A stretch of DNA of 42,323 nucleotides from Escherichia coli (GTDB taxonomy: Bacteria; Pseudomonadota; Gammaproteobacteria; Enterobacterales; Enterobacteriaceae), in NCBI RefSeq assembly GCF_003334315.1, contig NZ_QOWR01000043.1. The stretch is one strand, 5' to 3'. Under the pieces are notes generated by a model, which saw nothing but the letters and a program-made list of their open reading frames with translations, did no database searches and was not told where the DNA came from. This document shows, piece after piece, positions 9,699-36,758 of this stretch (position 1 is its first letter; the number at the start of each line of letters is the position of its first letter). The position numbers were made by a program, and so were the translations under genes.

Positions 9699-10829
9699 GT
9701 GAAAGTACTGACTGTATTTGGTACGCGCCCGGAAGCCATCAAGATGGCGCCGTTGGTGCATGCGTTGGCAAAAGATCCTTTTTTTGAGGCTAAAGTTTGC
9801 GTCACTGCGCAGCATCGGGAGATGCTCGATCAGGTGCTGAAACTCTTTTCCATTGTACCTGACTACGATCTCAACATAATGCAGCCAGGACAGGGCCTGA
9901 CAGAGATAACCTGTCGGATTCTGGAAGGGCTAAAACCTATTCTTGCCGAGTTCAAACCAGACGTCGTGCTGGTTCACGGCGATACGACAACGACGCTGGC
10001 AACCAGCCTGGCGGCGTTTTATCAGCGTATTCCTGTTGGTCACGTTGAGGCTGGTCTGCGCACGGGCGATCTCTATTCGCCGTGGCCGGAAGAGGCTAAC
10101 CGTACATTGACCGGGCATCTGGCGATGTATCACTTCTCTCCAACCGAAACTTCCCGGCAAAACTTGCTGCGTGAAAACGTTGCGGATAGCCGAATCTTCA
10201 TTACCGGTAATACAGTCATTGATGCACTGTTATGGGTGCGTGACCAGGTGATGAGCAGCGACACGCTGCGTTCAGAACTGGCGGCAAATTACCCGTTTAT
10301 CGACCCCGATAAAAAGATGATTCTGGTGACCGGTCACAGGCGTGAGAGTTTCGGTCGTGGCTTTGAAGAAATCTGCCACGCGCTGGCAGACATCGCCACC
10401 ACGCACCAGGACATCCAGATTGTCTATCCGGTGCATCTCAACCCGAACGTCAGAGAGCCGGTCAATCGCATTCTGGGGCATGTGAAAAATGTCATTCTGA
10501 TCGATCCCCAGGAGTATTTACCGTTTGTCTGGCTGATGAACCACGCCTGGCTGATTTTGACCGACTCAGGCGGCATTCAGGAAGAAGCGCCTTCGCTGGG
10601 GAAACCTGTGCTGGTGATGCGCGATACCACTGAGCGTCCGGAAGCGGTGACGGCGGGTACGGTGCGTCTGGTAGGCACGGATAAGCAGCGAATTGTCGAG
10701 GAAGTGACGCGTCTTTTAAAAGACGAAAACGAATATCAAGCTATGAGCCGCGCCCATAACCCGTATGGTGATGGTCAGGCATGCTCTCGCATTCTGGAAG
10801 CGTTAAAAAATAATCGGATATCACTATGA
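9699..10829 (+). CDS. wecB: UDP-N-acetylglucosamine 2-epimerase WecB, 376 aa
   Basis: ORF 9657..10829; recognised start [18 protein letters not shown] corresponds to GTG at 9699; the upstream in-frame extension is probably not translated. Confidence 0.9.
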
Positions 10830-12088
10830 GTTTTGCGACCATTTCTGTTATCGGACTGGGTTATATCGGGCTGCCAACGGCAGCAGCGTTTGCCTCACGG
10901 CAAAAACAGGTAATTGGTGTCGATATCAACCAACATGCGGTTGATACCATCAATCGTGGCGAAATCCATATCGTCGAACCTGATTTGGCGAGTGTAGTAA
11001 AAACTGCCGTAGAAGGCGGTTTTTTACGAGCGAGCACGACGCCAGTTGAAGCGGATGCCTGGCTGATTGCTGTACCCACGCCGTTTAAGGGCGATCATGA
11101 GCCAGATATGACCTACGTTGAATCGGCTGCTCGCTCCATTGCGCCAGTGCTGAAAAAAGGCGCGCTGGTGATCCTTGAATCCACCTCGCCGGTGGGGTCA
11201 ACCGAGAAGATGGCAGAATGGTTAGCAGAGATGCGTCCGGATCTCACTTTCCCGCAGCAGGTGGGCGAGCAGGCGGACGTCAACATTGCTTACTGCCCGG
11301 AACGCGTGTTACCAGGACAGGTAATGGTCGAGCTGATTAAAAACGATCGCGTGATTGGTGGTATGACGCCGGTTTGTTCGGCCCGCGCCAGCGAACTGTA
11401 CAAAATTTTCCTCGAAGGTGAGTGTGTCGTCACTAACTCGCGGACGGCGGAAATGTGTAAGCTCACCGAAAACAGCTTCCGCGATGTGAATATCGCTTTT
11501 GCTAATGAATTGTCGCTGATTTGTGCCGATCAGGGGATTAACGTCTGGGAACTGATTCGCCTGGCGAATCGTCACCCTCGCGTTAATATTCTTCAGCCTG
11601 GCCCTGGCGTGGGCGGTCACTGCATTGCTGTTGATCCGTGGTTTATCGTGGCACAGAACCCCCAGCAGGCGCGGCTTATCCGTACCGCGCGCGAAGTGAA
11701 CGATCACAAACCGTTCTGGGTTATCGATCAGGTGAAAGCGGCGGTGGCTGATTGCCTGGCGGCTACCGATAAACGCGCCAGTGAACTGAAAATCGCCTGC
11801 TTTGGTCTGGCGTTTAAACCGAATATTGATGACCTGCGCGAAAGCCCGGCGATGGAAATCGCTGAACTGATCGCCCAGTGGCATAGCGGCGAAACTCTGG
11901 TTGTTGAGCCTAACATCCACCAGTTGCCGAAAAAACTGACCGGGCTTTGTACTCTGGCGCAGCTTGACGAGGCGCTGGCAACGGCAGACGTGCTGGTGAT
12001 GCTGGTCGATCATAGTCAGTTCAAAGTTATCAATGGCGACAATGTCCATCAGCAGTATGTTGTCGATGCCAAAGGAGTCTGGCGCTGA
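10826..12088 (+). CDS. wecC: UDP-N-acetyl-D-mannosamine dehydrogenase WecC, 420 aa
   Basis: ORF 10826..12088; Rossmann motif GLGYIGLP at N-terminus; start overlaps wecB stop (ATGA). Confidence 0.95.
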
Positions 12089-13155
12089 TGAGAAAAATTC
12101 TGATAACAGGTGGTGCCGGGTTTATTGGCTCGGCGCTGGTGCGTTATATCATCAACGAAACGAGCGACGCGGTGGTAGTGGTCGATAAGCTGACCTACGC
12201 CGGAAACCTGATGTCGCTGGCACCGGTCGCGCAAAGCGAGCGCTTTGCCTTTGAGAAAGTTGATATCTGCGATCGGGCAGAACTGGCACGCGTATTCACT
12301 GAGCATCAGCCAGACTGTGTCATGCATCTGGCAGCCGAAAGCCATGTTGACCGTTCTATTGACGGCCCGGCAGCGTTTATTGAAACCAACATTGTCGGGA
12401 CTTATACATTGCTTGAAGCGGCGCGGGCTTACTGGAATGCGCTGACGGAAGATAAAAAATCAGCGTTCCGTTTTCATCATATCTCCACTGACGAAGTATA
12501 TGGTGACCTGCACTCGACGGATGATTTCTTCACCGAAACCACGCCGTATGCGCCGAGCAGCCCTTATTCCGCGTCAAAAGCCAGCAGCGACCATCTGGTG
12601 CGCGCCTGGCTGCGGACCTATGGTCTGCCGACGCTTATCACCAACTGCTCGAATAACTACGGCCCTTACCACTTTCCGGAAAAACTGATCCCGCTGATGA
12701 TCCTCAACGCGCTGGCGGGTAAATCGCTGCCGGTATATGGCAACGGGCAGCAAATCCGTGACTGGCTGTATGTGGAAGATCACGCCCGCGCGCTGTATTG
12801 CGTGGCGACCACCGGGAAAGTCGGTGAAACCTATAATATTGGTGGTCACAACGAGCGTAAGAATCTCGATGTTGTGGAAACCATTTGCGAGCTGCTGGAA
12901 GAACTGACTCCGAACAAGCCGCACGGCGTGGTGCACTATAGTGACTTGATCACCTTTGTCGCTGACCGTCCGGGGCATGATCTGCGTTATGCCATTGATG
13001 CTTCGAAAATTGCCCGTGAACTTGGCTGGCTGCCGCAGGAAACCTTTGAAAGTGGAATGCGTAAAACGGTGCAGTGGTATCTGGCTAATGAAAGCTGGTG
13101 GAAGCAGGTGCAGGACGGCAGCTATCAGGGCGAGCGTTTAGGTCTGAAAGGCTAA
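12088..13155 (+). CDS. rffG: dTDP-glucose 4,6-dehydratase RffG, 355 aa
   Basis: ORF 12088..13155; SDR motif TGGAGFIGS; start overlaps wecC stop. Confidence 0.95.
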
Positions 13156-13173
13156 TTTTCAGCGGAGGCAAAC

Positions 13174-14055
13174 ATGAAAGGTATTATCCTGGCGGGCGGT
13201 TCCGGCACCCGATTGCATCCGATTACGCGCGGCGTATCGAAGCAACTGTTGCCGATTTACGATAAGCCAATGATTTACTATCCGCTGTCGGTGCTGATGC
13301 TGGCCGGTATCCGCGAAATTCTCATCATCACTACGCCGGAAGATAAAGGTTATTTCCAGCGCCTGCTGGGCGATGGTAGTGAGTTCGGTATCCAGCTGGA
13401 ATATGCCGAACAGCCCAGCCCGGACGGTCTGGCGCAGGCCTTTATCATCGGTGAAACCTTCCTTAATGGTGAACCTTCTTGTCTGGTGCTGGGCGATAAC
13501 ATCTTCTTCGGTCAGGGCTTCAGTCCGAAGCTGCGTCATGTTGCGGCGCGCACCGAAGGGGCGACGGTTTTTGGCTATCAGGTGATGGACCCGGAACGCT
13601 TTGGCGTGGTGGAGTTTGACGACAATTTCCGCGCTATCTCGCTGGAAGAAAAGCCAAAACAGCCGAAGTCAAACTGGGCGGTGACCGGGCTTTATTTCTA
13701 CGACAGTAAAGTCGTGGAGTACGCAAAGCAGGTGAAGCCGTCGGAGCGTGGTGAACTGGAGATTACCTCCATCAACCAGATGTACCTCGAGGCGGGCAAC
13801 CTGACCGTTGAACTGCTCGGGCGCGGATTTGCCTGGCTGGATACCGGCACTCACGACAGCCTGATTGAAGCCAGCACCTTTGTACAGACGGTGGAAAAAC
13901 GCCAGGGCTTTAAGATTGCCTGCCTGGAAGAGATTGCCTGGCGTAACGGCTGGCTCGATGACGAGGGTGTGAAGCGTGCTGCCAGTTCATTAGCGAAAAC
14001 TGGCTACGGCCAATATCTGCTGGAGTTACTTCGTGCCCGTCCGCGCCAGTATTGA
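13174..14055 (+). CDS. rffH: Glucose-1-phosphate thymidylyltransferase RffH, 293 aa
   Basis: ORF 13174..14055; nucleotidyltransferase motif [11 protein letters not shown]. Confidence 0.95.
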
Positions 14056-14707
14056 GCCACTAACCTGGGAAAACGCCTTCTTTGGTGTTAACAGCGCCAT
14101 CGTGCGCATTACGTCTGAAGCACCGCTCCTGACGCCAGACGCGTTAGCGCCGTGGTCACGGGTGCAGGCCAAAATTGCGGCATCAAATACGGGTGAACTG
14201 GATGCCCTGCAACAGCTGGGATTCTCCCTGGTAGAAGGTGAAGTTGATTTGGCGCTACCCGTGAACAATGCCAGTGATAGCGGTGCTGTAGTGGCACAAG
14301 AGACCGATATTCCCGCATTACGTCAGTTAGCCAGCGCCGCATTTGCGCAAAGCCGTTTTCGTGCGCCGTGGTATGCGCCTGACGCCAGCAGTCGCTTTTA
14401 TGCACAGTGGATTGAAAATGCCGTGCGCGGCACCTTTGATCATCAATGTCTGATTTTACGTGCGGCGTCCGGCGATATTCGCGGCTATGTCTCTTTACGG
14501 GAACTCAATGCGACAGATGCGCGAATTGGCCTGCTGGCTGGACGCGGTGCAGGTGCTGAGCTGATGCAAACGGCGCTAAACTGGGCGTATGCTCGCGGTA
14601 AAACAACTTTGCGGGTGGCGACCCAAATGGGCAACACCGCCGCGCTTAAACGATACATACAAAGTGGTGCGAATGTAGAAAGCACCGCGTACTGGTTATA
14701 CAGGTGA
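14033..14707 (+). CDS. wecD: dTDP-fucosamine acetyltransferase WecD (GNAT family); start codon uncertain
   Basis: ORF 14033..14707 begins at GTG and overlaps the rffH 3' end by 23 nt; a shorter product from an internal GTG (codon 44) is possible; acetyl-CoA-binding-like C-terminal half. Confidence 0.8.
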
Positions 14708-14711
14708 TCAC

Positions 14712-15842
14712 ATGATTCCATTTAACGCACCGCCGGTGGTGGGAACCGAACTCGACTATATGCAGTCGGCAATGGGTAGCGGCAAACTGTGTGGCGATGG
14801 CGGTTTTACCCGTCGCTGCCAGCAGTGGCTGGAGCAACGTTTTGGCAGCGCCAAAGTGTTACTGACGCCGTCCTGCACCGCTTCGCTGGAGATGGCGGCG
14901 CTGCTGCTCGATATCCAGCCTGGCGATGAAGTGATCATGCCGAGCTACACCTTTGTCTCCACCGCCAATGCCTTTGTGCTGCGTGGCGCAAAAATCGTTT
15001 TTGTGGATGTTCGCCCGGACACCATGAACATCGACGAAACGCTGATTGAAGCGGCGATCACCGACAAAACGCGCGTTATCGTGCCGGTCCATTACGCGGG
15101 TGTGGCCTGCGAAATGGACACCATTATGGCGTTGGCGAAAAAGCATAATTTGTTTGTGGTAGAAGATGCCGCTCAGGGCGTGATGTCCACTTACAAAGGG
15201 CGTGCACTGGGAACCATTGGTCATATTGGCTGCTTTAGCTTCCATGAAACCAAAAACTACACGGCGGGCGGTGAAGGCGGCGCGACGCTGATTAACGATA
15301 AAGCGTTAATCGAACGAGCCGAGATCATCCGTGAAAAGGGCACTAACCGCAGCCAGTTCTTCCGTGGTCAGGTCGATAAATATACCTGGCGCGATATTGG
15401 CTCCAGCTATTTGATGTCCGATCTGCAAGCTGCATACCTGTGGGCGCAACTGGAAGCAGCGGATCGTATCAACCAGCAACGTCTGGCGCTGTGGCAAAAC
15501 TACTACGATGCGTTAGCGCCTCTGGCGAAAGCCGGGCGTATCGAGCTGCCGTCGATTCCCGATGGCTGCGTGCAGAACGCGCATATGTTCTACATTAAAC
15601 TGCGGGATATTGATGACCGGAGCGCGTTGATTAACTTTCTGAAAGAAGCGGAAATCATGGCGGTGTTTCATTACATTCCGCTGCACGGTTGCCCTGCGGG
15701 GGAACACTTTGGTGAGTTCCACGGTGAAGATCGCTACACCACCAAAGAGAGCGAGCGCCTGCTGCGCCTGCCGCTGTTCTACAACCTGTCGCCCGTCAAT
15801 CAGCGTACGGTAATTGCGACTTTGTTGAACTACTTTTCCTGA
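14712..15842 (+). CDS. wecE: dTDP-4-amino-4,6-dideoxygalactose transaminase WecE, 376 aa
   Basis: ORF 14712..15842; DegT/DnrJ/EryC1-type PLP aminotransferase. Confidence 0.95.
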   Translation: MIPFNAPPVVGTELDYMQSAMGSGKLCGDGGFTRRCQQWLEQRFGSAKVLLTPSCTASLEMAALLLDIQPGDEVIMPSYTFVSTANAFVLRGAKIVFVDVRPDTMNIDETLIEAAITDKTRVIVPVHYAGVACEMDTIMALAKKHNLFVVEDAAQGVMSTYKGRALGTIGHIGCFSFHETKNYTAGGEGGATLINDKALIERAEIIREKGTNRSQFFRGQVDKYTWRDIGSSYLMSDLQAAYLWAQLEAADRINQQRLALWQNYYDALAPLAKAGRIELPSIPDGCVQNAHMFYIKLRDIDDRSALINFLKEAEIMAVFHYIPLHGCPAGEHFGEFHGEDRYTTKESERLLRLPLFYNLSPVNQRTVIATLLNYFS

Positions 15843-15843
15843 T

Positions 15844-17094
15844 ATGTCGTTGGCAAAAGCGTCCTTGTGGACGGCGGCCAGTACACTGGTCAAGATTGGT
15901 GCCGGGTTACTGGTCGGTAAGTTGCTGGCGGTGTCATTTGGTCCGGCGGGGCTTGGGCTGGCGGCAAATTTCCGCCAGTTGATTACCGTGCTCGGCGTGC
16001 TTGCCGGGGCTGGCATCTTTAACGGTGTAACCAAATACGTTGCCCAGTACCATGATAATCCGCAACAGCTGCGCCGCGTGGTCGGCACTTCATCAGCGAT
16101 GGTACTTGGTTTCTCTACGCTGATGGCGCTGGTTTTTGTGCTGGCAGCTGCGCCAATCAGCCAGGGATTGTTTGGTAATACCGACTATCAGGGGCTGGTG
16201 CGTTTAGTGGCGCTGGTGCAAATGGGGATCGCCTGGGGCAACCTGTTACTGGCGCTGATGAAAGGCTTTCGCGATGCCGCAGGTAATGCGTTATCGCTGA
16301 TTGTCGGCAGCTTGATTGGCGTTCTCGCGTACTACGTCAGTTACCGTTTGGGCGGTTATGAAGGGGCGTTGCTGGGTCTGGCGCTGATTCCCGCGCTGGT
16401 GGTAATTCCTGCCGCCATCATGTTGATCAAACGTGGTGTCATCCCGTTAAGCTATCTGAAACCCAGCTGGGATAACGGTCTGGCAGGGCAGTTGAGCAAA
16501 TTTACGCTCATGGCGTTGATTACGTCGGTGACCTTGCCTGTTGCTTACATCATGATGCGTAAACTGCTGGCGGCGCAGTATAGCTGGGATGAGGTGGGGA
16601 TCTGGCAAGGGGTGAGCAGTATTTCCGATGCCTACCTGCAATTTATTACGGCATCGTTCAGCGTATATTTGCTGCCCACGTTGTCGCGGCTAACGGAAAA
16701 GCGCGATATCACCCGGGAAGTGGTTAAATCGCTGAAATTCGTCTTACCGGCAGTGGCGGCGGCGAGTTTTACCGTCTGGCTGCTGCGTGATTTTGCTATC
16801 TGGCTGCTGTTGTCGAATAAATTTACCGCTATGCGCGATCTCTTTGCCTGGCAGTTAGTGGGTGATGTGTTAAAAGTGGGCGCTTATGTCTTTGGTTATC
16901 TGGTGATCGCCAAAGCGTCACTGTGGTTTTATATTCTGGCGGAAGTCAGCCAGTTCACTTTATTGATGGTATTTGCCCACTGGCTAATCCCTGCGCATGG
17001 TGCACTGGGCGCGGCGCAGGCATATATGGCAACTTATATCGTCTATTTTTCTCTTTGTTGTGGCGTGTTTTTACTCTGGCGTAGGCGGGCATGA
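15844..17094 (+). CDS. wzxE: ECA lipid III flippase WzxE, 416 aa
   Basis: ORF 15844..17094; polytopic membrane protein of the Wzx flippase family. Confidence 0.93.
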
Positions 17095-18170
17095 CTGTAC
17101 TGATTCACGTACTGGGATCGGATATCCCTCACCATAACCGAACCGTTTTGCGGTTTTTCAATGACGCGCTGGCCGCGACGAGCGAGCACGCGCGCGAGTT
17201 TATGGTTGTTGGCAAGGACGACGGCTTAAGTGATAGCTGTCCGGCGCTTTCTGTGCAATTTTTCCCTGGGAAAAAATCGCTGGCGGAAGCGGTCATCGCG
17301 AAAGCAAAAGCTAACCGTCAGCAGCGTTTTTTCTTCCACGGTCAGTTCAATCCCACACTGTGGCTGGCTCTGCTGAGTGGTGGCATTAAGCCCAGCCAGT
17401 TTTTCTGGCATATCTGGGGGGCAGACCTGTATGAGCTTTCCAGTGGCTTGAGATATAAGCTTTTTTACCCACTACGTCGCCTGGCGCAAAAGCGAGTCGG
17501 CTGTGTATTTGCCACCCGCGGCGATTTGAGCTTTTTTGCCAAAACGCACCCAAAGGTGCGGGGCGAACTGCTGTACTTCCCGACGCGGATGGACCCTTCG
17601 CTCAATACGATGGCGAACGATCGGCAACGTGAAGGGAAAATGACCATTCTGGTGGGGAACTCCGGCGACCGCAGCAATGAGCATATTGCTGCCTTGCGCG
17701 CCGTTCATCAGCAATTTGGCGATACGGTAAAAGTGGTGGTGCCGATGGGATATCCGCCTAATAACGAAGCGTACATTGAGGAAGTTCGTCAGGCGGGGCT
17801 GGAGTTATTCAGCGAAGAAAATCTACAAATTCTGAGCGAAAAACTGGAATTTGACGCCTATCTGGCGCTACTTCGTCAGTGCGATCTTGGTTACTTTATT
17901 TTTGCCCGCCAGCAGGGCATTGGTACGCTGTGCTTACTGATTCAGGCGGGCATTCCTTGTGTGCTTAACCGGGAAAATCCGTTCTGGCAGGATATGACGG
18001 AACAATATTTGCCGGTGCTGTTTACTACCGACGATCTCAACGAGGATATTGTGCGTGAAGCGCAGCGCCAGTTGGCGTCGGTGGATAAAAACACCATTGC
18101 CTTCTTTAGCCCTAACTATCTACAAGGCTGGCAGCGGGCGTTGGCGATTGCCGCCGGGGAGGTCGCATGA
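17091..18170 (+). CDS. wecF: TDP-Fuc4NAc:lipid II Fuc4NAc transferase WecF, 359 aa
   Basis: ORF 17091..18170; start overlaps wzxE stop; position in ECA cluster. Confidence 0.93.
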
Positions 18171-19519
18171 GTCTGCTGCAATTCAGTGGCCTGTTTGTTG
18201 TCTGGCTGCTCTGCACGCTGTTTATTGCCACGCTGACCTGGTTTGAGTTTCGCCGTGTGCGCTTTAACTTCAATGTCTTCTTTTCATTGCTGTTTTTGCT
18301 CACCTTTTTCTTCGGCTTCCCGCTGACCAGCGTGCTGGTATTTCGCTTTGATGTTGGTGTCGCGCCGCCAGAAATCTTGTTGCAGGCGTTGCTTTCTGCG
18401 GGCTGCTTCTACGCGGTTTACTATGTCACCTACAAAACCCGCCTACGCAAACGCGTTGCTGATGTACCGCGCCGTCCGCTGTTTACCATGAACCGCGTGG
18501 AGACCAATCTTACGTGGGTGATCCTGATGGGTATCGCGCTGGTAAGCGTCGGCATCTTCTTCATGCACAACGGCTTTTTGCTGTTCCGGCTTAACTCCTA
18601 CAGTCAGATCTTTTCCAGTGAAGTCTCCGGCGTGGCGTTAAAACGCTTCTTTTACTTTTTCATCCCGGCGATGCTGGTGGTCTACTTTCTGCGCCAGGAC
18701 AGCAAAGCGTGGCTGTTTTTCCTCGTCAGCACGGTCGCCTTTGGCTTGCTGACTTATATGATTGTCGGCGGCACTCGCGCCAATATCATCATCGCATTCG
18801 CTATCTTCCTGTTTATTGGCATTATTCGCGGCTGGATTTCGTTGTGGATGCTGGCGGCGGCGGGCGTGCTGGGGATTGTTGGCATGTTCTGGCTGGCACT
18901 AAAACGCTATGGAATGAATGTGAGCGGCGATGAAGCGTTCTATACGTTTCTCTATCTCACTCGCGACACCTTCTCGCCGTGGGAGAATCTGGCGTTGCTG
19001 TTGCAGAACTACGACAACATCGACTTCCAGGGCCTGGCTCCAATTGTCCGCGATTTCTATGTCTTTATCCCTTCCTGGCTGTGGCCGGGTCGCCCGAGTA
19101 TGGTGCTGAACTCAGCCAACTACTTTACCTGGGAAGTGCTGAATAACCACTCCGGACTGGCGATCTCGCCTACGCTTATAGGCTCACTGGTGGTGATGGG
19201 CGGCGCGTTGTTCATCCCGCTCGGGGCGATCGTGGTTGGTCTGATCATCAAATGGTTCGACTGGCTGTATGAGCTGGGCAACCGCGAGCCTAATCGCTAT
19301 AAAGCTGCGATATTGCACAGTTTCTGCTTTGGGGCGATCTTCAATATGATCGTGCTGGCGCGTGAAGGGCTGGATTCGTTTGTCTCACGCGTGGTCTTTT
19401 TTATCGTGGTCTTCGGCGCATGTCTGATGATCGCAAAACTGTTGTACTGGCTTTTTGAAAGCGCCGGACTCATTCATAAACGTACAAAATCATCGCTCCG
19501 GACGCAGGTTGAAGGATAA
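18167..19519 (+). CDS. wzyE: ECA polymerase WzyE, 450 aa
   Basis: ORF 18167..19519; highly hydrophobic polytopic membrane protein; start overlaps wecF stop. Confidence 0.93.
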
Positions 19520-19521
19520 CA

Positions 19522-20262: not shown

Positions 20263-20280
20263 TTTTCCTCTCTTTGTAAA

Positions 20281-20319
20281 GCGACGGAGTGGTCACTCCG
20301 TCGCCTGTCTGCTTTTTTA
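20281..20319 (+). terminator. Rho-independent terminator at the end of the wec operon
   Basis: Hairpin gcgacggagtg-gtc-actccgtcgc followed by ctgtctgctttttt. Confidence 0.8.
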
Positions 20320-20452
20320 TTACACAAAGCATTCAAATTTTTAATGCTTTATTTGCCATTTCTCCTGAATTACGAAAACATTTGCAACACTCGATGTACC
20401 CATAACGATAACCGGTAACACCGGAAAGCATGCAAACACAACACGAGGATTT

Positions 20453-21838: not shown

Positions 21839-21890
21839 GCAGCAAAACGCACAAACCGTAACCAAACGCGCAATTTATTTAAAAAGGGAC

Positions 21891-21919: not shown

Positions 21920-21940
21920 CCACCCCCGCAACGGCGCTAA

Positions 21941-22017
<77 letters not shown>

Positions 22018-22074
22018 TTTAGTCCCGGCGCTTGAGCTGCGGTGGTAGTAATACCGCGTAACAAGATTTGTAGT

Positions 22075-22151
22075 GGTGGCTATAGCTCAGTTGGTAGAGC
22101 CCTGGATTGTGATTCCAGTTGTCGTGGGTTCGAATCCCATTAGCCACCCCA
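22075..22151 (+). tRNA. hisR: tRNA-His (anticodon GUG), with extra 5' G(-1)
   Basis: ggtggctatagctcagttggtagagccctggattgtgattccag...ggttcgaatcccattagccacccca. Confidence 0.95.
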
Positions 22152-22171
22152 TTATTAGAAGTTGTGACAAT

Positions 22172-22258
22172 GCGAAGGTGGCGGAATTGGTAGACGCGCT
22201 AGCTTCAGGTGTTAGTGTCCTTACGGACGTGGGGGTTCAAGTCCCCCCCCTCGCACCA
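22172..22258 (+). tRNA. leuT: tRNA-Leu (anticodon CAG), class II with long variable arm
   Basis: gcgaaggtggcggaattggtagacgcgctagcttcaggtgttag...gggggttcaagtcccccccctcgcacca. Confidence 0.95.
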
Positions 22259-22300
22259 CGACTTTAAAGAATTGAACTAAAAATTCAAAAAGCAGTATTT

Positions 22301-22377
22301 CGGCGAGTAGCGCAGCTTGGTAGCGCAACTGGTTTGGGACCAGTGGGTCGGAGGTTCGAATCCTCTCTCGCCGACCA
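22301..22377 (+). tRNA. proM: tRNA-Pro (anticodon UGG)
   Basis: cggcgagtagcgcagcttggtagcgcaactggtttgggaccag...ggttcgaatcctctctcgccgacca. Confidence 0.95.
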
Positions 22378-22385
22378 ATTTTGAA

Positions 22386-26006: not shown

Positions 26007-26203
26007 GTAGATGCTCATTCCATCTCTTATGTTCGCCTTAGTGCCTCATAAACTCCGGAATGACGCAGAGCCGTTTACGGTGCTTATCGTCCACTGACAG
26101 ATGTCGCTTATGCCTCATCAGACACCATGGACACAACGTTGAGTGAAGCACCCACTTGTTGTCATACAGACCTGTTTTAACGCCTGCTCCGTAATAAGAG
26201 CAG
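26007..26203 (+). ncRNA. glmZ: Small regulatory RNA GlmZ (activator of glmS translation); ends approximate
   Basis: ORF-free stretch beginning gtagatgctcattccatctcttatgttcgcc, preceded by a cataat -10 (25995..26000) and ending in terminator gcctgctccgtaataagagcaggc + T7; matches the GlmZ sequence as I recall it, in the aslA-hemY intergenic region. Confidence 0.8.
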
Positions 26204-26260
26204 GCGTTTTTTTATGTGTCAGGAAGGCCCCGGAGGTGCTTGCCCCCGGGTGAGAAGGAA

Positions 26261-27457
26261 CTACTGTGGTGGGTTGTTCTGCAACGTTAACATCAAACCG
26301 TCGTGACGCATCGCTGCAGCTTCTTCCGGCTTGTGCAGTCTGTCCAGCGCGTCGGCAAGCCATGCGTAATCGTAGGCGTCCGGACGTTGTTTCAGCGCTG
26401 CGCGGAAGGCGAGCGATGCTTCCTGCCATTCTCCGTGCTTCATCAGTGACTGGCCCAGTGTGCTCCACAACAGCGGGCGATCGCCGACGTTTTTGATCTG
26501 CTGGCGCAGCACTTTTTCCAGCTGTTCCGGATTGTTGGTTTTCAGTCGAGGAATCGGCAGCAGTAGGCGATCGTCATACTGGCGTTTCAGGCCGTCGATG
26601 ATAATTTGCTGGGCAGTATCATGATCGTCACATTCAATAAGATGTTCCGCCATTGCCACCTGCAACGCTACCTGATGACGCGTTTTCCGGCTTTGGTTTT
26701 TCCACCAGTTACGCAAGCCTTCGCTACCGTTATCGGCACGCGCCTGATCCATCAGGCCAATCCATGCCTGTTGTTCCAGCATTGCACGATGTTCTTCATC
26801 GCCAACGTGGGCTTTCGCCATTGATGGGATGATATCCAGCAGCGAACTCCATGCACCAGTGCGGATATACGCCTGTTCCGCCAGACGTAATACTTCCGGA
26901 TGGCGTGGCGTAACTTCCAGCAGCTTATCCACGCCGTGGCGTGCAGCATGGTTTTCATTACGGGCCAGTTGCAGACGTACACGGGTGATTTCTACCGGAA
27001 TTGTGTCGTTGCCGGCCAGCTCCGCTGCGCGTTCCAGATGTTGGTTGGCGCGTGCTTCATCACCGCGTTGTTGCGCGGCTTCGGCAGCCAGCAGATAGTT
27101 CACCACCGGTTGTTCAGCGTGATCGGCATTTTTCGCCATCAGCTTTTCAACTTGCTGATAATCGCCTTCCGCTAGTTTCAGCAGCGCCTGTTCGGTCTGC
27201 TTACGGGCACGGCGACGCTTACGTCCGACAAACCACCCACGGGTGTGTGCGCCTGTGCGGAAGATCCGCCGCAGTAGCCACTCAATGGCAAACAGCACTA
27301 CCATCGCCAGAATCAAAATAATCGCCAGGCCAGTGACGCTGGTTTCGATATTGTAGTTGTCGGTCTGAATCAATACGTACCCCTGATGACCGGCAATCAT
27401 CGGGCCAACCACGATCCCCGCAATCAGCAAAACAAAGAGCAATAGCACTTTTAGCAT
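26261..27457 (-). CDS. hemY: HemY protein (TPR-containing inner membrane protein), 398 aa
   Basis: ORF 26261..27457 minus; N-terminal TM segments; last gene of hemCDXY. Confidence 0.93.
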   Translation of the reverse strand: MLKVLLLFVLLIAGIVVGPMIAGHQGYVLIQTDNYNIETSVTGLAIILILAMVVLFAIEWLLRRIFRTGAHTRGWFVGRKRRRARKQTEQALLKLAEGDYQQVEKLMAKNADHAEQPVVNYLLAAEAAQQRGDEARANQHLERAAELAGNDTIPVEITRVRLQLARNENHAARHGVDKLLEVTPRHPEVLRLAEQAYIRTGAWSSLLDIIPSMAKAHVGDEEHRAMLEQQAWIGLMDQARADNGSEGLRNWWKNQSRKTRHQVALQVAMAEHLIECDDHDTAQQIIIDGLKRQYDDRLLLPIPRLKTNNPEQLEKVLRQQIKNVGDRPLLWSTLGQSLMKHGEWQEASLAFRAALKQRPDAYDYAWLADALDRLHKPEEAAAMRHDGLMLTLQNNPPQ

Positions 27458-27459
27458 GG

Positions 27460-28641
27460 TTATTCTCCTTGCGGCGCGGCTGCCGGAGTATCAGCTTGCG
27501 GTGCAGGTGCAGGTTTAGCTTCCGTTGCCCCTGCTGTCGGTTGTGCCAGCAGGTTACGCACGCGAGTCTGCATCAGTTTTTCCAGCATCGCCTGGCTTTG
27601 CAGGGTTTCCGGAAGATCCATCGAGATATTTTGCTGGCTTAACTGGTCCACCTCGTCGAGGAACGCTTTGGTGGTGGCATCATCAGTATCGTAGTAAGCA
27701 CGTACCCAGGTGGAGACGTTCTCCAGCGCCTGGCGATAAGTCTCTTCCTGGTGACGCGGTACAGCTTGTGCTGCGACCAGCAGGCGAGAGCGAATATTTT
27801 CGCGCAGATAGATATCCTGATTTGGCGCTAACAGCGGTACGGCGGTGTCATCACGACGGCGAATCGTAATGAAGTTGTCCATAAAGTTCTGCCAGCTTTT
27901 TTGCAGATTGATACGCCATTCGCTGATGGAACTGGAAAGCTCTTCACCGTCTGAATCCATCGGCGAACCATCGCTGTCATTATCGGCCAGACGCAGGTTA
28001 TCTACCTGATTTGAAAGCTGATTAAGCTTAAGGATGATGCCGTCATAATCCACCTGCGATACTGCAGAAAGGCTGGCGATATCATCGGTAATTGCCCGAC
28101 GAACGGTAATCAGACTCGGGTCATTCATATCCGCCAGGCTGGCGTCTGCACTTTTCAGCAACGCTGCAGCGGTCGTGACGTCCTGATCGCTCCACAGCTT
28201 CCGTCCGGCGAGTTTCACCAGAAAATCGGCCTGAGCCAGCAGCCAGGTTTTAGCATCGCTGCCGGAAATGGTGGCGACCTTTTGTTGGACCTCATCCAAC
28301 TGTTTTGCCAGCGTTTCTTGCTGACGATTCGCCTGCTTAAGCTGTGCAGCTTGTTGCTTAATAATGCCTTCCAGCTCGGCTTTTTGGCTCTCCTGGGCTT
28401 TTTGCAATGCCGTCAGTTGGTTAGCCAGGGCATCGCTGGTGGCGGTCTGATTGACGGCCTGTTGTTTACCCCAGCCATACAAACCGACGCCCGCCGCCAG
28501 AGCAATAGCGATAGCCACCGCGCTGAGAATCAATGCGGTATTGTTCTTACTCTTTTTTTCTGTTGCGACAGGTTGTGACGTGGTGTCCACGGCCTCCCTG
28601 GTCTCTTCAACCACGGCGGAGGTTTTTTCTTGTTCCGTCAT
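27460..28641 (-). CDS. hemX: HemX protein (membrane protein with coiled-coil/Ala-Gln-rich region), 393 aa
   Basis: ORF 27460..28641 minus; low-complexity AQ-rich central region; hem operon context. Confidence 0.93.
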
Positions 28642-28662
28642 TATGGCTTCCTGTTATGAGAG

Positions 28663-29403
28663 TTATTGTAATGCCCGTAAAAGCGCATCGTTGTCAGCGT
28701 TATCGGCGACCTTAATGTCTTGCCAGCCCAGTTCCCGGGCGAGTTTCGCCAAACGCTCACTGACGACCAATAGTCGACAGTGTAGTAACCAGTGCTCACG
28801 ATACCATTGTGGGATCAGCGACCAGAGTTGCTGCAACATTTCACCGCTGGTAACAACGACCGTCGTCACCTCGCGGGATTGCCAGCGCATCGCTTCTTCT
28901 GCACCATCGTAATGGATTGCGCATCGTTGATAACATTCACAAAAAGTGACCTCAGCACCGCGCGCCGTCAGGGTATCCCCAATTAGCTCACGACCACCAT
29001 TGCCACGTAATATCAGCGCACGTTTGCCCGCAATATTTTGTAATTCAGGTAATTGTAGCAAGACTTCGCTGATTTCCCGATCCTGCGGGTAGAGAATCTT
29101 CTGTCCGCTTACGGTATGTAGTGCCAGTGCGGTGGTGCGTCCAATGGCGAAATAATCAGGTAGTCGGGGCCATTTACGATCTTGCTGATGCAGCTGTGAT
29201 TGGGCAAAAGCAACCGCGTGTTGCGAGAGGGCAAACAACAGATCGCTCTCCCCCAGCGCTGCCAGTTGATCAGCAAGTTGCGGTAATTGTTGACCCGGAG
29301 AAAACTCAATCAGCGGAAAATGCCAGGCCACCTGCCCCAGTGTGCGCAGACGGCTCACTAACTCTTCTCCAGCGGGAGACGGGCGGGTGACAAGGATACT
29401 CAT
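28663..29403 (-). CDS. hemD: Uroporphyrinogen-III synthase HemD, 246 aa
   Basis: ORF 28663..29403 minus; start overlaps hemC stop. Confidence 0.93.
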
Positions 29404-30341
29404 GCCGGGGCGTCTCCGTTATAGACTTCAGCGAGGATCTCGCGCGCGCCGTTATTCAGTAGCTCTTCTGCCAGCGAAATCCCCATTTGTTCGGCATCTT
29501 GCGGCGCACCGCGGCGTTCACCGCGAATAATCTGCGAACCGTCCGGCGCGCCGACCAGCGCACGCAGCCAGATTTCGCCATCAATAAGCTCGGCGTAGCT
29601 ACCAATTGGCACCTGACATCCGCCTTCGAGACGGGTATTCATGGCGCGTTCTGCGGTAACGCGCAGTGCAGTTTCGTGGTGATTCAGCGCGGCAAGCAGC
29701 TCGCGAGTGCGTGAATCATCAAGGCGGCATTCAATACCCACCGCACCTTGTCCTACCGCCGGAAGAGAAATCTCGGGTGGCAACGCGGCGCGAATACGTG
29801 ACTCCAGACCTAAACGTTTTAGTCCGGCTACGGCAAGAATGATGGCATCGTATTCGCCGTTATCCAGTTTGCTCAGGCGAGTGCCGACGTTGCCGCGCAG
29901 GGAGCGGATAATCAGATCCGGACGGCGTTCAGCCAGTTGGCACTGGCGACGTAAACTGGACGTCCCGACGATACTGCCTGCCGGTAACGCATCCAGACTG
30001 TCATAGTTATTGGACACAAAGGCATCGCGAGGATCTTCACGCTCACAAATAGTGACCAGTCCCAGACCTTGCGGGAATTCAACCGGCACATCTTTCATTG
30101 AGTGTACGGCGATATCGGCGCGATTTTCGAGGAGCGCGACTTCCAGCTCTTTTACAAATAAGCCTTTTCCGCCTACTTTCGCCAGCGGCGTATCAAGAAT
30201 CACATCGCCGCGCGTCACCATCGGTACCAGTTCAACGACCAGGCCCGGATGGCTCGCCATCAACTTGTCTTTGACATAGTGTGCCTGCCAGAGTGCAAGT
30301 GGGCTTTGGCGTGTGGCAATTCTTAAAACATTGTCTAACAT
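29400..30341 (-). CDS. hemC: Porphobilinogen deaminase (hydroxymethylbilane synthase) HemC, 313 aa
   Basis: ORF 29400..30362 minus; recognised start [20 protein letters not shown] at the internal ATG (minus-strand codon at 30339..30341). Confidence 0.93.
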
Positions 30342-30727
30342 GCTTGTTACCGTCATTATCATCCGTGGTCCATCCTAACATCCTTGCCAGAGTGATGTCA
30401 GTGTTGTGGTGAAACGTAGACGCCTGCGCAAACCGTAAAATGAGGTCTGGCAGTGGATCCTGACAGGCGTTTCACGCCGTTGTAATAAGGAATTTACAGA
30501 GAATAAACGGTGCTACACTTGTATGTAGCGCATCTTTCTTTACGGTCAATCAGCAAGGTGTTAAATTGATCACGTTTTAGACCATTTTTTCGTCGTGAAA
30601 CTAAAAAAACCAGGCGCGAAAAGTGGTAACGGTTACCTTTGACATACGAAATATCCCGAATGCCGCGTGTTACCGTTGATGTTGGCGGAATCACAGTCAT
30701 GACGGGTAGCAAATCAGGCGATACGTC

Positions 30728-33274
30728 TTGTACCTCTATATTGAGACTCTGAAACAGAGACTGGATGCCATAAATCAATTGCGTGTGGATCGCGCGCTTG
30801 CTGCTATGGGGCCTGCATTCCAACAGGTCTACAGTCTACTGCCGACATTGTTGCACTATCACCATCCGCTAATGCCGGGTTACCTTGATGGTAACGTTCC
30901 CAAAGGCATTTGCCTTTACACGCCTGATGAAACTCAACGCCACTACCTGAACGAGCTTGAACTGTATCGTGGAATGTCAGTACAGGATCCGCCGAAAGGT
31001 GAGCTTCCAATTACTGGTGTATACACCATGGGCAGCACCTCGTCCGTAGGGCAAAGTTGTTCCTCTGACCTGGATATCTGGGTCTGTCATCAATCCTGGC
31101 TCGATAGCGAAGAGCGCCAATTGCTACAACGTAAATGTAGCCTGCTGGAAAACTGGGCCGCCTCGCTGGGTGTGGAAGTCAGCTTCTTCCTGATTGATGA
31201 AAACCGCTTCCGTCATAATGAAAGCGGCAGCCTGGGGGGCGAAGATTGTGGCTCCACCCAGCATATACTGCTGCTTGACGAATTTTATCGTACCGCCGTG
31301 CGTCTCGCCGGTAAGCGTATTCTGTGGAATATGGTGCCGTGCGACGAAGAAGAGCATTACGACGACTATGTGATGACGCTTTACGCGCAGGGCGTGCTGA
31401 CGCCAAATGAATGGCTGGATCTCGGTGGCTTAAGCTCGCTTTCTGCTGAAGAGTACTTTGGTGCCAGCCTTTGGCAGCTCTACAAGAGTATCGATTCCCC
31501 ATACAAAGCGGTACTGAAAACACTGCTGCTGGAAGCCTATTCCTGGGAATACCCGAACCCACGTCTGCTGGCGAAAGATATCAAACAGCGTTTGCACGAC
31601 GGCGAGATTGTATCGTTTGGTCTCGATCCATACTGCATGATGCTGGAGCGTGTTACTGAATACCTGACGGCGATTGAAGATTTTACCCGTCTGGATTTAG
31701 TACGTCGCTGCTTCTATTTAAAAGTGTGCGAAAAGCTCAGCCGTGAACGCGCCTGCGTAGGCTGGCGTCGCGCAGTGTTGAGCCAGTTAGTGAGCGAGTG
31801 GGGTTGGGACGAAGCTCGTCTGGCAATGCTCGATAACCGCGCTAACTGGAAGATTGATCAGGTGCGTGAGGCGCACAACGAGTTGCTCGACGCGATGATG
31901 CAGAGCTACCGTAATCTGATCCGCTTTGCGCGTCGCAATAACCTTAGCGTCTCCGCCAGTCCGCAGGATATCGGCGTGCTGACGCGTAAGCTGTATGCCG
32001 CGTTTGAAGCATTACCAGGTAAAGTGACGCTGGTAAACCCGCAGATTTCACCCGATCTCTCGGAACCGAATCTGACCTTTATTTGTGTGCCGCCGGGCCG
32101 GGCTAACCGTTCAGGTTGGTATCTGTATAACCGCGCGCCAAATATTGAGTCGATCATCAGCCATCAGCCGCTGGAATATAACCGTTACCTGAATAAACTG
32201 GTGGCGTGGGCATGGTTTAACGGCCTGCTGACCTCGCGCACCCGTTTGTATATTAAAGGTAACGGCATTGTCGATTTGCCTAAGTTGCAGGAGATGGTCG
32301 CCGACGTGTCGCACCATTTCCCGCTGCGCTTACCTGCACCGACACCGAAGGCGCTCTACAGCCCGTGTGAGATCCGCCATCTGGCGATTATCGTTAACCT
32401 GGAATATGACCCGACAGCGGCGTTCCGCAATCAGGTGGTGCATTTCGATTTCCGTAAGCTGGATGTCTTCAGCTTTGGCGAGAATCAAAATTGCCTGGTA
32501 GGTAGCGTTGACCTGCTGTACCGCAACTCGTGGAACGAAGTGCGTACGCTGCACTTCAACGGCGAGCAATCGATGATCGAAGCCCTGAAAACTATTCTCG
32601 GCAAAATGCATCAGGACGCCGCACCGCCAGATAGCGTGGAAGTCTTCTGTTATAGCCAGCATCTGCGCGGCTTAATTCGTACTCGCGTGCAGCAACTGGT
32701 TTCTGAGTGTATTGAATTGCGTCTTTCCAGCACCCGCCAGGAAACCGGGCGTTTCAAGGCGCTGCGCGTTTCTGGTCAAACCTGGGGGTTGTTCTTCGAA
32801 CGCCTGAATGTATCGGTACAGAAACTGGAAAACGCCATCGAGTTTTATGGCGCGATTTCGCATAACAAACTGCACGGCCTGTCAGTGCAGGTTGAAACCA
32901 ATCACGTCAAATTACCGGCGGTGGTGGACGGCTTTGCCAGCGAAGGGATCATCCAGTTCTTTTTCGAAGAAACGCAAGACGAGAATGGCTTTAATATCTA
33001 CATTCTCGACGAAAGCAACCGGGTTGAGGTATATCACCACTGCGAAGGCAGCAAAGAGGAGCTGGTACGTGACGTCAGTCGCTTCTACTCGTCATCGCAT
33101 GACCGTTTTACCTACGGCTCAAGCTTCATCAACTTCAACCTGCCGCAGTTCTATCAGATTGTGAAGGTTGATGGTCGTGAACAGGTGATTCCGTTCCGCA
33201 CAAAATCTATCGGTAACATGCCGCCTGCCAATCAGGATCACGATACGCCGCTATTACAGCAATATTTTTCGTGA
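30728..33274 (+). CDS. cyaA: Adenylate cyclase (class I) CyaA, 848 aa, TTG start codon
   Basis: ORF 30728..33274 begins at ttg; N-terminus [32 protein letters not shown] recognised; divergent from hemC. Confidence 0.95.
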
Positions 33275-33313
33275 TGAACGTGCCGGAAAGCGAGGCTTAT
33301 CCGGCATGCAATC

Positions 33314-33634
33314 TTAGCGGAAACTGACTGTTTCACCCGCCTGCTGCGTCGCCGCCTGTTCCAGCAAATCCCAGAAGGTTTCGCCGCTGCGATCACAAAT
33401 CCACTCATCGCCTTTCAGGTCAAAATGGTAGCCGCCCTGTTTGGTTGCCAGCCATACCTGGTGCAGCGGCTCCTGGCGGTTGATAATGATTTTGCTGCCA
33501 TTCTCAAAGGTAATGGTCAGTACGCCGCCGTTGATTTCGCAGTCGATATCGCTGTCGCCATCCCAGTCGTCCAGGCGTTCTTCAATGGTCAGCCAGAGTT
33601 GATCAGCCAGGCGATGAAATTCACTGTCGTTCAT
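33314..33634 (-). CDS. cyaY: Frataxin homolog CyaY (iron-sulfur cluster assembly), 106 aa
   Basis: ORF 33314..33634 minus; [33 protein letters not shown] acidic ridge typical of frataxin. Confidence 0.95.
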
Positions 33635-34096
33635 TGTTGTATCCTGTTTTTAAGTGATGGCGGCAGTATAGCGGCATGGGGTCAGGGCTTCAAAGTTTGC
33701 ACCTCTGCGGCTGCGTTCCGGCACGATTCATCCGTCACCGGAATAATGATGTCTCTGTGTAGCGAAAGATTTGTCTCTTCATTAGGGCGCAGTTACACCA
33801 CGTCTTTCCCTGTTTCTGGTAAACATTATGATCAGGTTTACCGAGCGAGCATCCTCACGCTGACGGAACTAAAAAAGACAACAAACAAACCACATTGCGA
33901 TAGTGCATAAAGCCATCCTGGCGCGAGGTGCCGATCACGAAACTACCAGCAAAACATAAATCCCCACGAGTAAGCGTTATACTCGCAGCATTTCCTCACT
34001 TTTCAGACTTCATAAAGAGTCGCTAAACGCTTGCTTTTACGTCTTCTCCTGCGATGATAGAAAGCAGAAAGCGATGAACTTTACAGGCAATCCATA

Positions 34097-34300
34097 ATGA
34101 AAAACGTGTTTAAGGCACTCACTGTATTACTTACTCTCTTCAGCCTGACGGGCTGCGGTCTGAAAGGTCCGCTCTATTTCCCGCCTGCAGATAAAAACGC
34201 ACCGCCGCCGACCAAACCGGTAGAGACGCAAACGCAATCCACGGTGCCGGATAAAAACGATCGCGCCACTGGCGATGGTCCATCCCAGGTGAATTACTAA
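34097..34300 (+). CDS. yifL: Small predicted lipoprotein YifL, 67 aa
   Basis: ORF 34097..34300; lipobox LTGC after a signal peptide; Pro-rich low-complexity tail. Confidence 0.85.
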   Translation: MKNVFKALTVLLTLFSLTGCGLKGPLYFPPADKNAPPPTKPVETQTQSTVPDKNDRATGDGPSQVNY

Positions 34301-34336
34301 AAGTCAGTTTCTGTACCCGCGTGATTGGAGTAAATG

Positions 34337-35161
34337 ATGCAGTTCTCGAAAATGCATGGCCTTGGCAACGATTTTATGGTCGTCGACGCGGTAACGCAGA
34401 ATGTCTTTTTTTCACCGGAGCTGATTCGTCGCCTGGCTGATCGGCACCTGGGGGTAGGGTTTGACCAACTGCTGGTGGTTGAGCCGCCGTATGATCCTGA
34501 ACTGGATTTTCACTATCGCATTTTCAATGCTGATGGCAGTGAAGTGGCGCAGTGCGGCAACGGTGCGCGCTGCTTTGCCCGTTTTGTGCGTCTGAAAGGA
34601 CTGACCAATAAGCGTGATATCCGCGTCAGCACCGCCAACGGGCGGATGGTTCTGACCGTCACCGATGATGATCTGGTCCGCGTAAATATGGGCGAACCCA
34701 ACTTCGAACCTTCCGCCGTGCCGTTTCGCGCTAACAAAGCGGAAAAGACCTATATTATGCGCGCCGCCGAGCAGACAATCTTATGCGGCGTGGTGTCGAT
34801 GGGAAATCCGCATTGCGTGATTCAGGTCGATGATGTCGATACCGCGGCGGTAGAAACGCTTGGTCCTGTTCTGGAAAGCCACGAGCGTTTTCCGGAGCGC
34901 GCCAATATCGGTTTTATGCAAGTGGTTAAGCGCGAGCATATTCGTTTACGCGTTTATGAGCGTGGGGCAGGAGAAACCCAGGCCTGCGGCAGCGGCGCGT
35001 GTGCGGCGGTTGCAGTAGGGATTCAGCAAGGTTTGCTGGCCGAAGAAGTACGCGTGGAACTCCCCGGCGGTCGTCTTGATATCGCCTGGAAAGGTCCGGG
35101 TCACCCGTTATATATGACTGGCCCGGCGGTACATGTCTACGACGGATTTATTCATCTATGA
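34337..35161 (+). CDS. dapF: Diaminopimelate epimerase DapF, 274 aa
   Basis: ORF 34334..35161; recognised start [17 protein letters not shown] at ATG 34337; catalytic Cys motifs (GNGARC, CGSGAC). Confidence 0.95.
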
Positions 35162-35865
35162 AGCAACCAGGGGAAGAACTGCAGGAAACACTCACGGAGC
35201 TTGATGACCGGGCGGTTGTCGATTATCTGATTAAAAATCCTGAGTTTTTTATCCGTAATGCGCGCGCAGTAGAAGCGATACGTGTGCCGCATCCGGTACG
35301 CGGCACCGTTTCGTTGGTCGAGTGGCACATGGCCCGCGCACGTAATCATATTCATGTTCTGGAAGAGAACATGGCGCTGTTGATGGAACAGGCTATCGCC
35401 AACGAAGGCCTGTTTTATCGCCTACTCTACCTGCAGCGCAGTCTCACCGCCGCCAGCAGTCTCGACGATATGCTGATGCGCTTTCACCGCTGGGCGCGCG
35501 ATCTCGGCCTGGCAGGTGCGAGTCTGCGCCTGTTTCCGGATCGCTGGCGCTTAGGTGCGCCGTCGAACCACACTCATCTGGCATTAAGCCGTCAGTCTTT
35601 CGAACCGCTGCGTATTCAGCGTTTGGGGCAGGAACAGCACTATCTTGGGCCGCTTAACGGACCAGAGCTGCTGGTGGTGCTACCGGAAGCGAAAGCGGTG
35701 GGATCGGTGGCGATGTCGATGCTGGGAAGCGATGCTGATTTGGGTGTCGTGCTGTTTACCAGTCGCGATGCCAGTCACTATCAACAAGGGCAAGGAACGC
35801 AGTTACTTCATGAAATTGCGCTGATGTTGCCGGAGCTTCTGGAGCGTTGGATTGAACGCGTATGA
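35158..35865 (+). CDS. yigA: DUF484-family protein YigA, 235 aa
   Basis: ORF 35158..35865; start overlaps dapF stop; conserved dapF-yigA-xerC-yigB arrangement. Confidence 0.9.
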
Positions 35866-36758
35866 CCGATTTACACACCGATGTAGAACGCTACCTACGT
35901 TATCTGAGCGTGGAGCGCCAGCTTAGCCCGATAACCCTGCTTAACTACCAGCGTCAGCTTGAGGCGATCATCAATTTTGCCAGCGAAAACGGCCTGCAAA
36001 GCTGGCAGCAATGTGATGTGACGATGGTGCGCAATTTTGCTGTACGCAGTCGCCGTAAAGGGCTGGGAGCAGCAAGTCTGGCGTTACGGCTTTCTGCGCT
36101 ACGTAGCTTTTTTGACTGGCTGGTCAGCCAGAACGAACTCAAAGCTAACCCGGCGAAAGGTGTTTCGGCACCGAAAGCGCCGCGTCATCTGCCGAAAAAC
36201 ATCGACGTCGACGATATGAATCGGCTGCTGGATATTGATATCAATGATCCCCTCGCTGTACGCGACCGTGCAATGCTGGAAGTGATGTACGGCGCGGGTC
36301 TGCGTCTTTCTGAGCTGGTGGGGCTGGATATTAAACACCTCGACCTGGAGTCTGGTGAAGTGTGGGTTATGGGGAAAGGCAGCAAAGAGCGCCGCCTGCC
36401 GATTGGTCGCAACGCTGTGGCGTGGATTGAGCACTGGCTTGATTTGCGCGACCTGTTTGGTAGCGAAGACGACGCGCTTTTTCTGTCGAAACTGGGCAAG
36501 CGTATCTCCGCGCGTAATGTGCAGAAACGCTTTGCCGAATGGGGCATAAAACAAGGGCTGAATAATCACGTTCATCCGCATAAATTACGTCACTCGTTCG
36601 CCACGCATATGCTGGAGTCGAGCGGCGATCTTCGTGGTGTGCAGGAGCTGCTGGGTCATGCCAACCTCTCCACCACGCAAATCTATACTCATCTTGATTT
36701 TCAACACCTTGCCTCGGTGTACGATGCGGCGCATCCACGCGCCAAACGGGGGAAATAA
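35862..36758 (+). CDS. xerC: Tyrosine site-specific recombinase XerC (chromosome dimer resolution), 298 aa
   Basis: ORF 35862..36758; conserved catalytic residues (R...HxxR...Y) near C-terminus: [10 protein letters not shown]...[14 protein letters not shown]. Confidence 0.95.

Follow-up and report, generated by a model that had tools for sequence, protein, structure and literature searches.

Translational coupling of neighboring genes has been assayed with premature-stop reporters in the Escherichia coli pairs hyfHI, astDB, ydbH/ynbE, as well as menDH, which are coupled by termination-reinitiation (Huber et al. 2019, 2023; PMC6728339, PMC10666635). In the classical examples, trpB-trpA, galT-galK, and rplK-rplA, the genes are coupled because the region around the downstream start is unfolded (PMC7538156). 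The bioB/bioF pair behaves otherwise: bioF is initiated de novo and is uncoupled (PMC6728339), so an overlap alone is no proof of coupling. Here, we describe nine overlaps between the end of one gene and the start of the next in a 42,323-nt stretch of E. coli DNA (contig NZ_QOWR01000043.1 of RefSeq assembly GCF_003334315.1), which is referred to below as the window. It is likely that these are genuine, conserved stop/start overlaps within three known operons (wecA-rffM, hemCDXY, and lptM-dapF-yigA-xerC-yigB) and that translation of the downstream genes is partly tied to that of the upstream ones.

Like hyfHI and astDB, and like ydbH/ynbE and menDH, the pairs in the window are same-strand operon genes of the same organism with -4 or -1 geometry (negative values denote overlaps in nt, positive values gaps) and a mixture of strong, weak, and absent Shine-Dalgarno (SD) motifs. 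They are known from their sequence, whereas the four published pairs were assayed. In the published class, subunits of heteromeric complexes are over-represented; the products of most pairs described here are instead distinct enzymes or membrane proteins that act in a single pathway. With trpB-trpA, galT-galK, and rplK-rplA they share a stop codon near or over the next start and a start that is embedded in foldable upstream coding sequence, but no junction-specific inhibitory structure was demonstrable by folding at the junctions of the window. The resemblance to bioB/bioF consists of the 4-nt ATGA overlap, the biosynthetic enzymes, and the weak SD motif.

To locate the junctions, gene ends from the RefSeq annotation of strain AHM9C68I were placed on the window, and each gene was checked for a start codon, a stop codon, and an open frame; the annotation of K-12 MG1655 was compared as a second source. 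The eight overlaps of 1–4 nt that had been listed in the original prediction were all re-derived exactly by direct reading of the junctions (six 4-nt ATGA overlaps and two 1-nt overlaps; Table 1), and positions 10826 and 36758, which it had given as limits, correspond to the first and last junction. The ninth pair, rffH/rffC, was absent from that list because it was confined to overlaps of 1–4 nt. With two real genes and a true downstream start, the eight pairs belong to the class of -4 ATGA and -1 TRATG same-strand overlaps. The same junctions are present in K-12 MG1655, with 81-nt contexts that are identical or, in two cases, differ by 1 nt. Four further pairs nearly abut: rffA/wzxE (+1), wzyE/wecG (+2), hemX/hemY (+2), and rffC/rffA (+4). 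In the last of these, rffA has a good SD motif (AGGTGA) and starts 4 nt past the rffC stop (14707–14714). Start codons other than ATG are found in wecA (GTG, 7482), wecB (GTG, 9699), rffC (GTG, 14033), and cyaA (TTG, 30728).

Table 1. Overlapping junctions of the window, as read directly from the sequence, and stop-to-start spacing with the downstream-to-upstream ratio of translation efficiency (TE) in K-12 for overlapping and spaced neighbors
Gene pair	Position	Strand	Junction	Spacing (nt)	TE ratio
wecB/wecC	10826..10829	+	wecB stop/wecC start, ATGA, 4-nt overlap	-4	1.31
wecC/rffG	12088	+	wecC stop/rffG start, TGATG (12086..12090), 1-nt overlap	-1	0.71
rffH/rffC	14033..14055	+	23-nt overlap, rffC GTG start inside rffH end	-23	0.60
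wzxE/wecF	17091..17094	+	wzxE stop/wecF start, ATGA, 4-nt overlap, without SD motif	-4	
wecF/wzyE	18167..18170	+	wecF stop/wzyE start, ATGA, 4-nt overlap, strong SD (GGGGAGG)	-4	
hemC/hemD	29400..29403	-	hemC stop/hemD start, ATGA, 4-nt overlap	-4	
dapF/yigA	35158..35161	+	dapF stop/yigA start, ATGA, 4-nt overlap, weak SD	-4	0.97
yigA/xerC	35862..35865	+	yigA stop/xerC start, ATGA, 4-nt overlap, weak SD	-4	
xerC/yigB	36758	+	xerC stop/yigB start, TAATG (36756..36760), 1-nt overlap, SD GGGGGAAA	-1	
wecA/wzzE				+11	0.79
wzzE/wecB				+55	1.91
rffG/rffH				+18	0.64
hemX/hemY				+2	0.51
rffC/rffA				+4	5.29
lptM/dapF				+36	0.11

The overlaps had also been taken as support for operon membership, and this is in agreement with the published transcription units that hold these pairs, namely wecA-rffM, hemCDXY, and yifL-dapF-yigA-xerC-yigB (PMC11376589; PMC3045617). 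When the window was searched for strong terminator-like sites, none was found inside the three units; strong terminator-like hairpins are located downstream of rho and of the tRNA cluster, and at glmZ. Published K-12 mRNA levels are continuous across the junctions, with ratios of 0.66–1.13, in line with one transcript over each junction and no internal terminator. The downstream start lies within the footprint of the terminating ribosome, with no room for a promoter or a terminator, and therefore the genes at these junctions are co-transcribed. Downstream of the last unit, the final yigB codons before uvrD (37448–37475, + strand) contain a near-consensus sigma-70 promoter sequence (TTGGCA, a 16-nt spacer, and TATAAT, with an upstream TG), and for this reason uvrD is probably transcribed from a promoter of its own, even though it lies behind the yigB operon in the same orientation.

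The bare motif is common, as an ATG, GTG, or TTG that overlaps the stop by 4 or 1 nt occurs in 14 of the 36 genes of the window. Among these 14 motifs, only the eight listed ones open reading frames of more than 133 codons, and the other six open 3–18 codons. Nine of the 27 same-strand neighbor pairs in the window overlap (33%). The proportion of overlapping pairs in E. coli was reported as ∼15% in one study and as more than 30% in a second; the binomial p is 0.014 for 9/27 against 15% and 0.06 for nine of the 18 closely spaced pairs (gap of at most 55 nt) against 30%. The slight enrichment is explained by the presence of three long operons in the window. Among same-strand neighbor distances in E. 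coli, -4 is the commonest, followed by -1 (PMC10666635). Stop/start overlap is the commonest and an already well-described packing of bacterial operon genes, and the finding is correct but ordinary.

Conservation of the junctions in the cluster for enterobacterial common antigen (ECA) was analyzed in a one-genome-per-species scan with RffA, which yielded ∼55 Enterobacterales loci with 10-kb flanks, in which the ECA junctions were re-derived by homology. The wecB/wecC spacing is -4 in 44 of 53 loci, wzxE/wecF is -4 in 48 of 54, and wecF/wzyE is -4 in 47 of 54 and -1 in another four. Approximately 24 of the 55 loci lack rffG and rffH in their ECA cluster, and this absence is scattered over several families. 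In all 31 loci with rffG, wecC and rffG overlap (26 at -4 and five at -1), and in all 27 loci with rffH, the rffH/rffC spacing is -23. Across the five wec junctions, the overlap is thus retained in 83–100% of loci, with protein identity in these loci down to 46–67%. The ordinary spacers wecA/wzzE, wzzE/wecB, rffG/rffH, and wzyE/wecG have many lengths across the same loci. In most Enterobacterales that have rffG, the wecC/rffG junction is of the -4 type, and rffG starts with TTG (junction sequence CGTTGA) or GTG. The junction (12086–12091 in the window) changed from CGTTGA to CGCTGATG or CGCTAATG, with an ATG start at -1, in Escherichia and Citrobacter, and the last WecC residues are unchanged.

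For the other two operons, Salmonella salamae and Kosakonia sacchari have hem and dapF junctions exactly as in E. coli, including hemC/hemD at -4, and the hemC/hemD spacing is +4 in one more distant relative. A search for YigA homologs returned only relatives with at least 78% identity, and a representative search then reached distant ones; the relatives are labeled L082–L087 overall, and the distant set comprises four loci with starts taken from gene callers. The dapF/yigA spacing is -4 in L082, L083, L084, and L086, and the two genes are spaced in L085 and L087. For yigA/xerC, it is -4 in L082–L084, -8 in L086, -1 in L087, and +8 in L085; for xerC/yigB, it is -1 in L082–L085, with spaced genes in L086 and L087. 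Around the distant YigA relatives (34–56% identity; distant Gammaproteobacteria), the order dapF-DUF484-xerC-HAD hydrolase is retained. The distant junctions thus drift between -4, -8, -1, and short or longer gaps, which indicates that the tight packing is old and that the exact overlap turns over. In the hem operon, hemX (27460–28641, - strand) is 1182 nt long in the window and in K-12 and 1224 nt long in the otherwise identical AHM9C68I, a 42-nt in-frame length polymorphism.

The junctions differ in their ribosome-binding sites. SD strength was scored before each start and compared with random intragenic windows, for which the median was -2.7 kcal/mol and 13% of the values were at or below -6. 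Strong SD motifs precede rffG in 97% and wzyE in 94% of species. An SD duplex of -6 kcal/mol or better was found before the wecF start in none of 54 loci, and at the wzxE start, located 1 nt past the rffA stop (15842–15846), an SD motif was found in one of 55 loci (2%). The SD motif of wecC is intermediate across species: most others carry an AGGTGA-like sequence before the gene, whereas E. coli itself has lost the AGGTGA and has a weak motif. Upstream of rffG, the SD motif is part of the wecC coding sequence. WecC ends in K-G-V-W-R, and in all 31 loci with rffG the Gly codon is one of the rare codons GGA and GGG and forms AAGGAG at the right distance from the start (12071–12088 in the window). 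Of the 20 loci that lack both rffG and rffH, 15 have GGC or GGT at this codon. Before wzyE, GGRGA is retained while the WecF residues behind the motif vary freely. The Gly-codon contrast is the clearest sign of function at the junctions and points to selection on an SD motif embedded in coding sequence. The switch from GGR with rffG to GGY without it may represent a natural experiment in which the SD motif appears or relaxes with the gain or loss of the downstream gene.

These differences separate two classes of junction. In wecC/rffG, wecF/wzyE, and xerC/yigB, a selected SD motif lies inside the upstream coding sequence, and ordinary SD pairing could serve initiation. In wzxE/wecF, dapF/yigA, and yigA/xerC, and in wecB/wecC of E. 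coli, there is little or no SD motif, and dependence on the upstream ribosome would be most likely. The rffA-wzxE-wecF spacing (+1, -4) is kept in almost all Enterobacterales examined, and this run of starts may act as a translation relay that sets the relative amounts of the membrane-bound proteins of ECA assembly without independent ribosome entry. The combined proposal of an obligatory, SD-less translation relay from rffA through wzxE to wecF and of a wecC Gly-codon switch that reflects SD selection is put forward tentatively, as a possibility that we would not yet call probable.

Coupling at the overlaps could proceed by two routes. The terminating ribosome might re-initiate on the spot, or it might prevent folding around the start and so let a free 30S subunit load. 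In published data, coupling is permitted at stop-to-start distances of about -8 to +10 nt, and its efficiency drops steeply beyond a gap of about 14–38 nt (PMC10666635); the -4 and -1 junctions lie within the permissive range. In reporter assays with mRNA controls, four of five native E. coli ATGA pairs were coupled, the exception being bioBF (PMC6728339). For the window, TE in K-12 was taken from the table of Burkhardt et al. 2017, in which hemD, xerC, yigB, wzxE, wecF, and wzyE are below the expression cut-off. TE changes by at most 1.7-fold over the four measurable overlapping pairs, compared with 5.3-fold at rffC/rffA and 9-fold at lptM/dapF. The TE ratios range from 0.60 to 1.31 for overlapping pairs versus 0.11 to 5.3 for non-overlapping pairs (four versus six pairs, exact one-sided p = 0.057). 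TE of rffA is 5.3-fold above that of rffC despite the +4 gap, and close spacing therefore does not force equal translation. The original prediction had read the overlaps as indicating coupling, a step that goes beyond what sequence alone can show but is plausible and a reasonable expectation: translation of the downstream genes is probably linked in part to that of the upstream genes.

Several observations weigh against this reading. The TE comparison is small, with four against six pairs and the other five overlapping pairs below the expression cut-off. Overlapping starts showed no difference from other starts in the predicted accessibility of the SD motif and start (p = 0.19); their 100-nt contexts fold more stably (p = 0.005), but the G+C content of the coding sequence confounds this effect. 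Conservation of the junctions is partly forced because any insertion or deletion alters two proteins, and the Gly-codon contrast at the end of wecC (Fisher p = 5e-9) is uncorrected for phylogeny. A search of the literature for direct coupling tests of hemC/hemD, dapF/xerC, or pairs of the ECA operon found none. In genome-wide data, TE ratios scatter to about the same extent in overlapping and in non-overlapping pairs (p = 0.06; PMC5318159), and depletion of ribosome recycling factor (RRF) left coupling unchanged, overlapping pairs included (PMC7538156), so re-initiation is disfavored as the main mechanism. Re-initiation by the same ribosome or 30S subunit is supported by PMC6728339 and PMC10666635 and opposed as the main route by PMC7538156; coupling strength is variable genome-wide, and its mechanism is disputed in the field.

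Both genome-wide results would also fit overlaps that are real but neutral by-products of operon compaction and of stop/start turnover, with independent 30S initiation and no regulatory role: the variability of TE ratios is nearly equal (PMC5318159), and the lack of an RRF effect points to de novo initiation (PMC7538156). A model based on mutation alone, with no selection, accounts for much of how same-strand overlaps are distributed in length and phase (PMC3887535), the ATGA pair bioBF is uncoupled (PMC6728339), the junctions turn over in distant relatives (-4, -1, -8, and short gaps), and at three junctions the gene's own strong SD motif suffices for independent initiation. However, wecF has no SD motif in any of the 54 loci and wzxE is nearly devoid of one, yet they are held at -4 and +1, and efficient independent initiation at these two starts is hard to explain. 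In addition, four of the five tested E. coli ATGA pairs are coupled, coupling is lost at gaps of about 20–40 nt, and TE is similar across the measurable overlapping pairs of the window. Overall, we regard neutrality of the overlaps as unlikely.

A different objection is that some overlaps are annotation artefacts, with the true downstream start later in frame and genes that would then not overlap. Later in-frame start-like codons are indeed present (TTG at yigB codon 7, GTG at hemD codon 16, and GTG at xerC codon 17), and YigA of Citrobacter comes out at 223 aa with some gene callers. The start codons chosen in the original prediction nevertheless hold up, as each is the 5′-most start of its open reading frame (ORF), RefSeq and K-12 curation concur on them, and the wec start positions are conserved. 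For all nine pairs, no possible start precedes the overlapping one within the ORF, and an in-frame stop lies 9–81 nt upstream. A start codon at the position of E. coli residue 1 is found for rffG in 31 of 31 loci, for rffC in 40 of 55, and for wecC, wecF, and wzyE in 47–53 of 54 Enterobacterales loci, so that the start occupies the same position in most loci; conservation of the N-termini begins at residue 1. For the starts on the hem and dapF side, the comparison covers gene calls in up to six relatives, and these concur. WecC contains GLGYIG (residues 10–15) and RffG contains GGAGFIG (residues 8–14), which we take to be nucleotide-binding glycine motifs; both start within 10 residues of the proposed starts. 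In YigB, the DLDDT motif occupies residues 16–20. Loci with rffH upstream of rffC and loci without it share a conserved RffC N-terminus, and the solved WecD chain (2FS5/2FT0) matches RffC from residue 2; the 23-nt rffH/rffC overlap is therefore real. Misannotated starts were thus rejected on the basis of first-start position and start conservation across loci, and we consider them very improbable. Even less credible are programmed frameshifting or readthrough sites that would fuse the neighboring proteins. Apart from the +1/-1 frame relation, which is present at any such junction, nothing speaks for them: there is no slippery-site or pseudoknot signal at the junctions, and they were rejected because in-frame stops lie 9–81 nt upstream of the downstream starts and the proteins are annotated as separate chains, WecD having been solved as one. 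Partial linkage of translation across genuine overlaps is the reading that we retain as likely.

The window is a segment of the E. coli chromosome that extends from rep to corA. A 20-kb slice of it is matched in all 5,426 of 5,426 complete E. coli genomes, with 100% identity to strain AHM9C68I. According to the AHM9C68I RefSeq and K-12 MG1655 annotations, it begins with rep, gppA, rhlB, trxA, rhoL, and rho, followed by the ECA cluster in the order wecA-wzzE-wecB-wecC-rffG-rffH-rffC-rffA-wzxE-wecF-wzyE-wecG. The ECA cluster is followed by thrP, four tRNAs, aslB, aslA, glmZ, hemYXDC (minus strand), cyaA, and cyaY, and the right end is formed by lptM-dapF-yigA-xerC-yigB, uvrD, yigE, ysgD, and corA. 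Rfam matches comprise the thermometer in the trxA 5′ untranslated region (5257–5356, + strand), the GlmZ small RNA between aslA and hemY (26007–26213, + strand), and the four tRNAs (21941–22374, + strand), which are annotated in RefSeq as Arg, His, Leu, and Pro and in K-12 as argX-hisR-leuT-proM. Scans for tandem repeats and Rfam families returned nothing that bears on the junctions. Antisense to cyaY (33314–33634, - strand) lies a 161-codon ORF (33425–33910, + strand) that is named yzcX in the K-12 annotation; the Prokaryotic Genome Annotation Pipeline (PGAP) annotation of AHM9C68I has, for the same stretch, a fragment of a DKNYY-family pseudogene with a frameshift, on the opposite strand.

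In summary, the phenomenon is textbook knowledge, and few genes in biology are better annotated than these; what is described here is already known and leaves current understanding unchallenged. Its value lies mainly in quality control, as the gene starts and the operon structure of this E. coli region are confirmed. Three side results deserve to be kept: the overlap of rffH and rffC, the possible rffA-wzxE-wecF relay that lacks SD motifs, and the Gly-codon contrast of wecC. Deletions or insertions in wecB, wecC, rffH, wzxE, wecF, hemC, dapF, yigA, and xerC should spare the last ∼20–30 nt of the upstream gene, as their loss may alter expression of the next gene. The cross-species data add a modest but clean case in which a ribosome-binding site within coding sequence is under selection.

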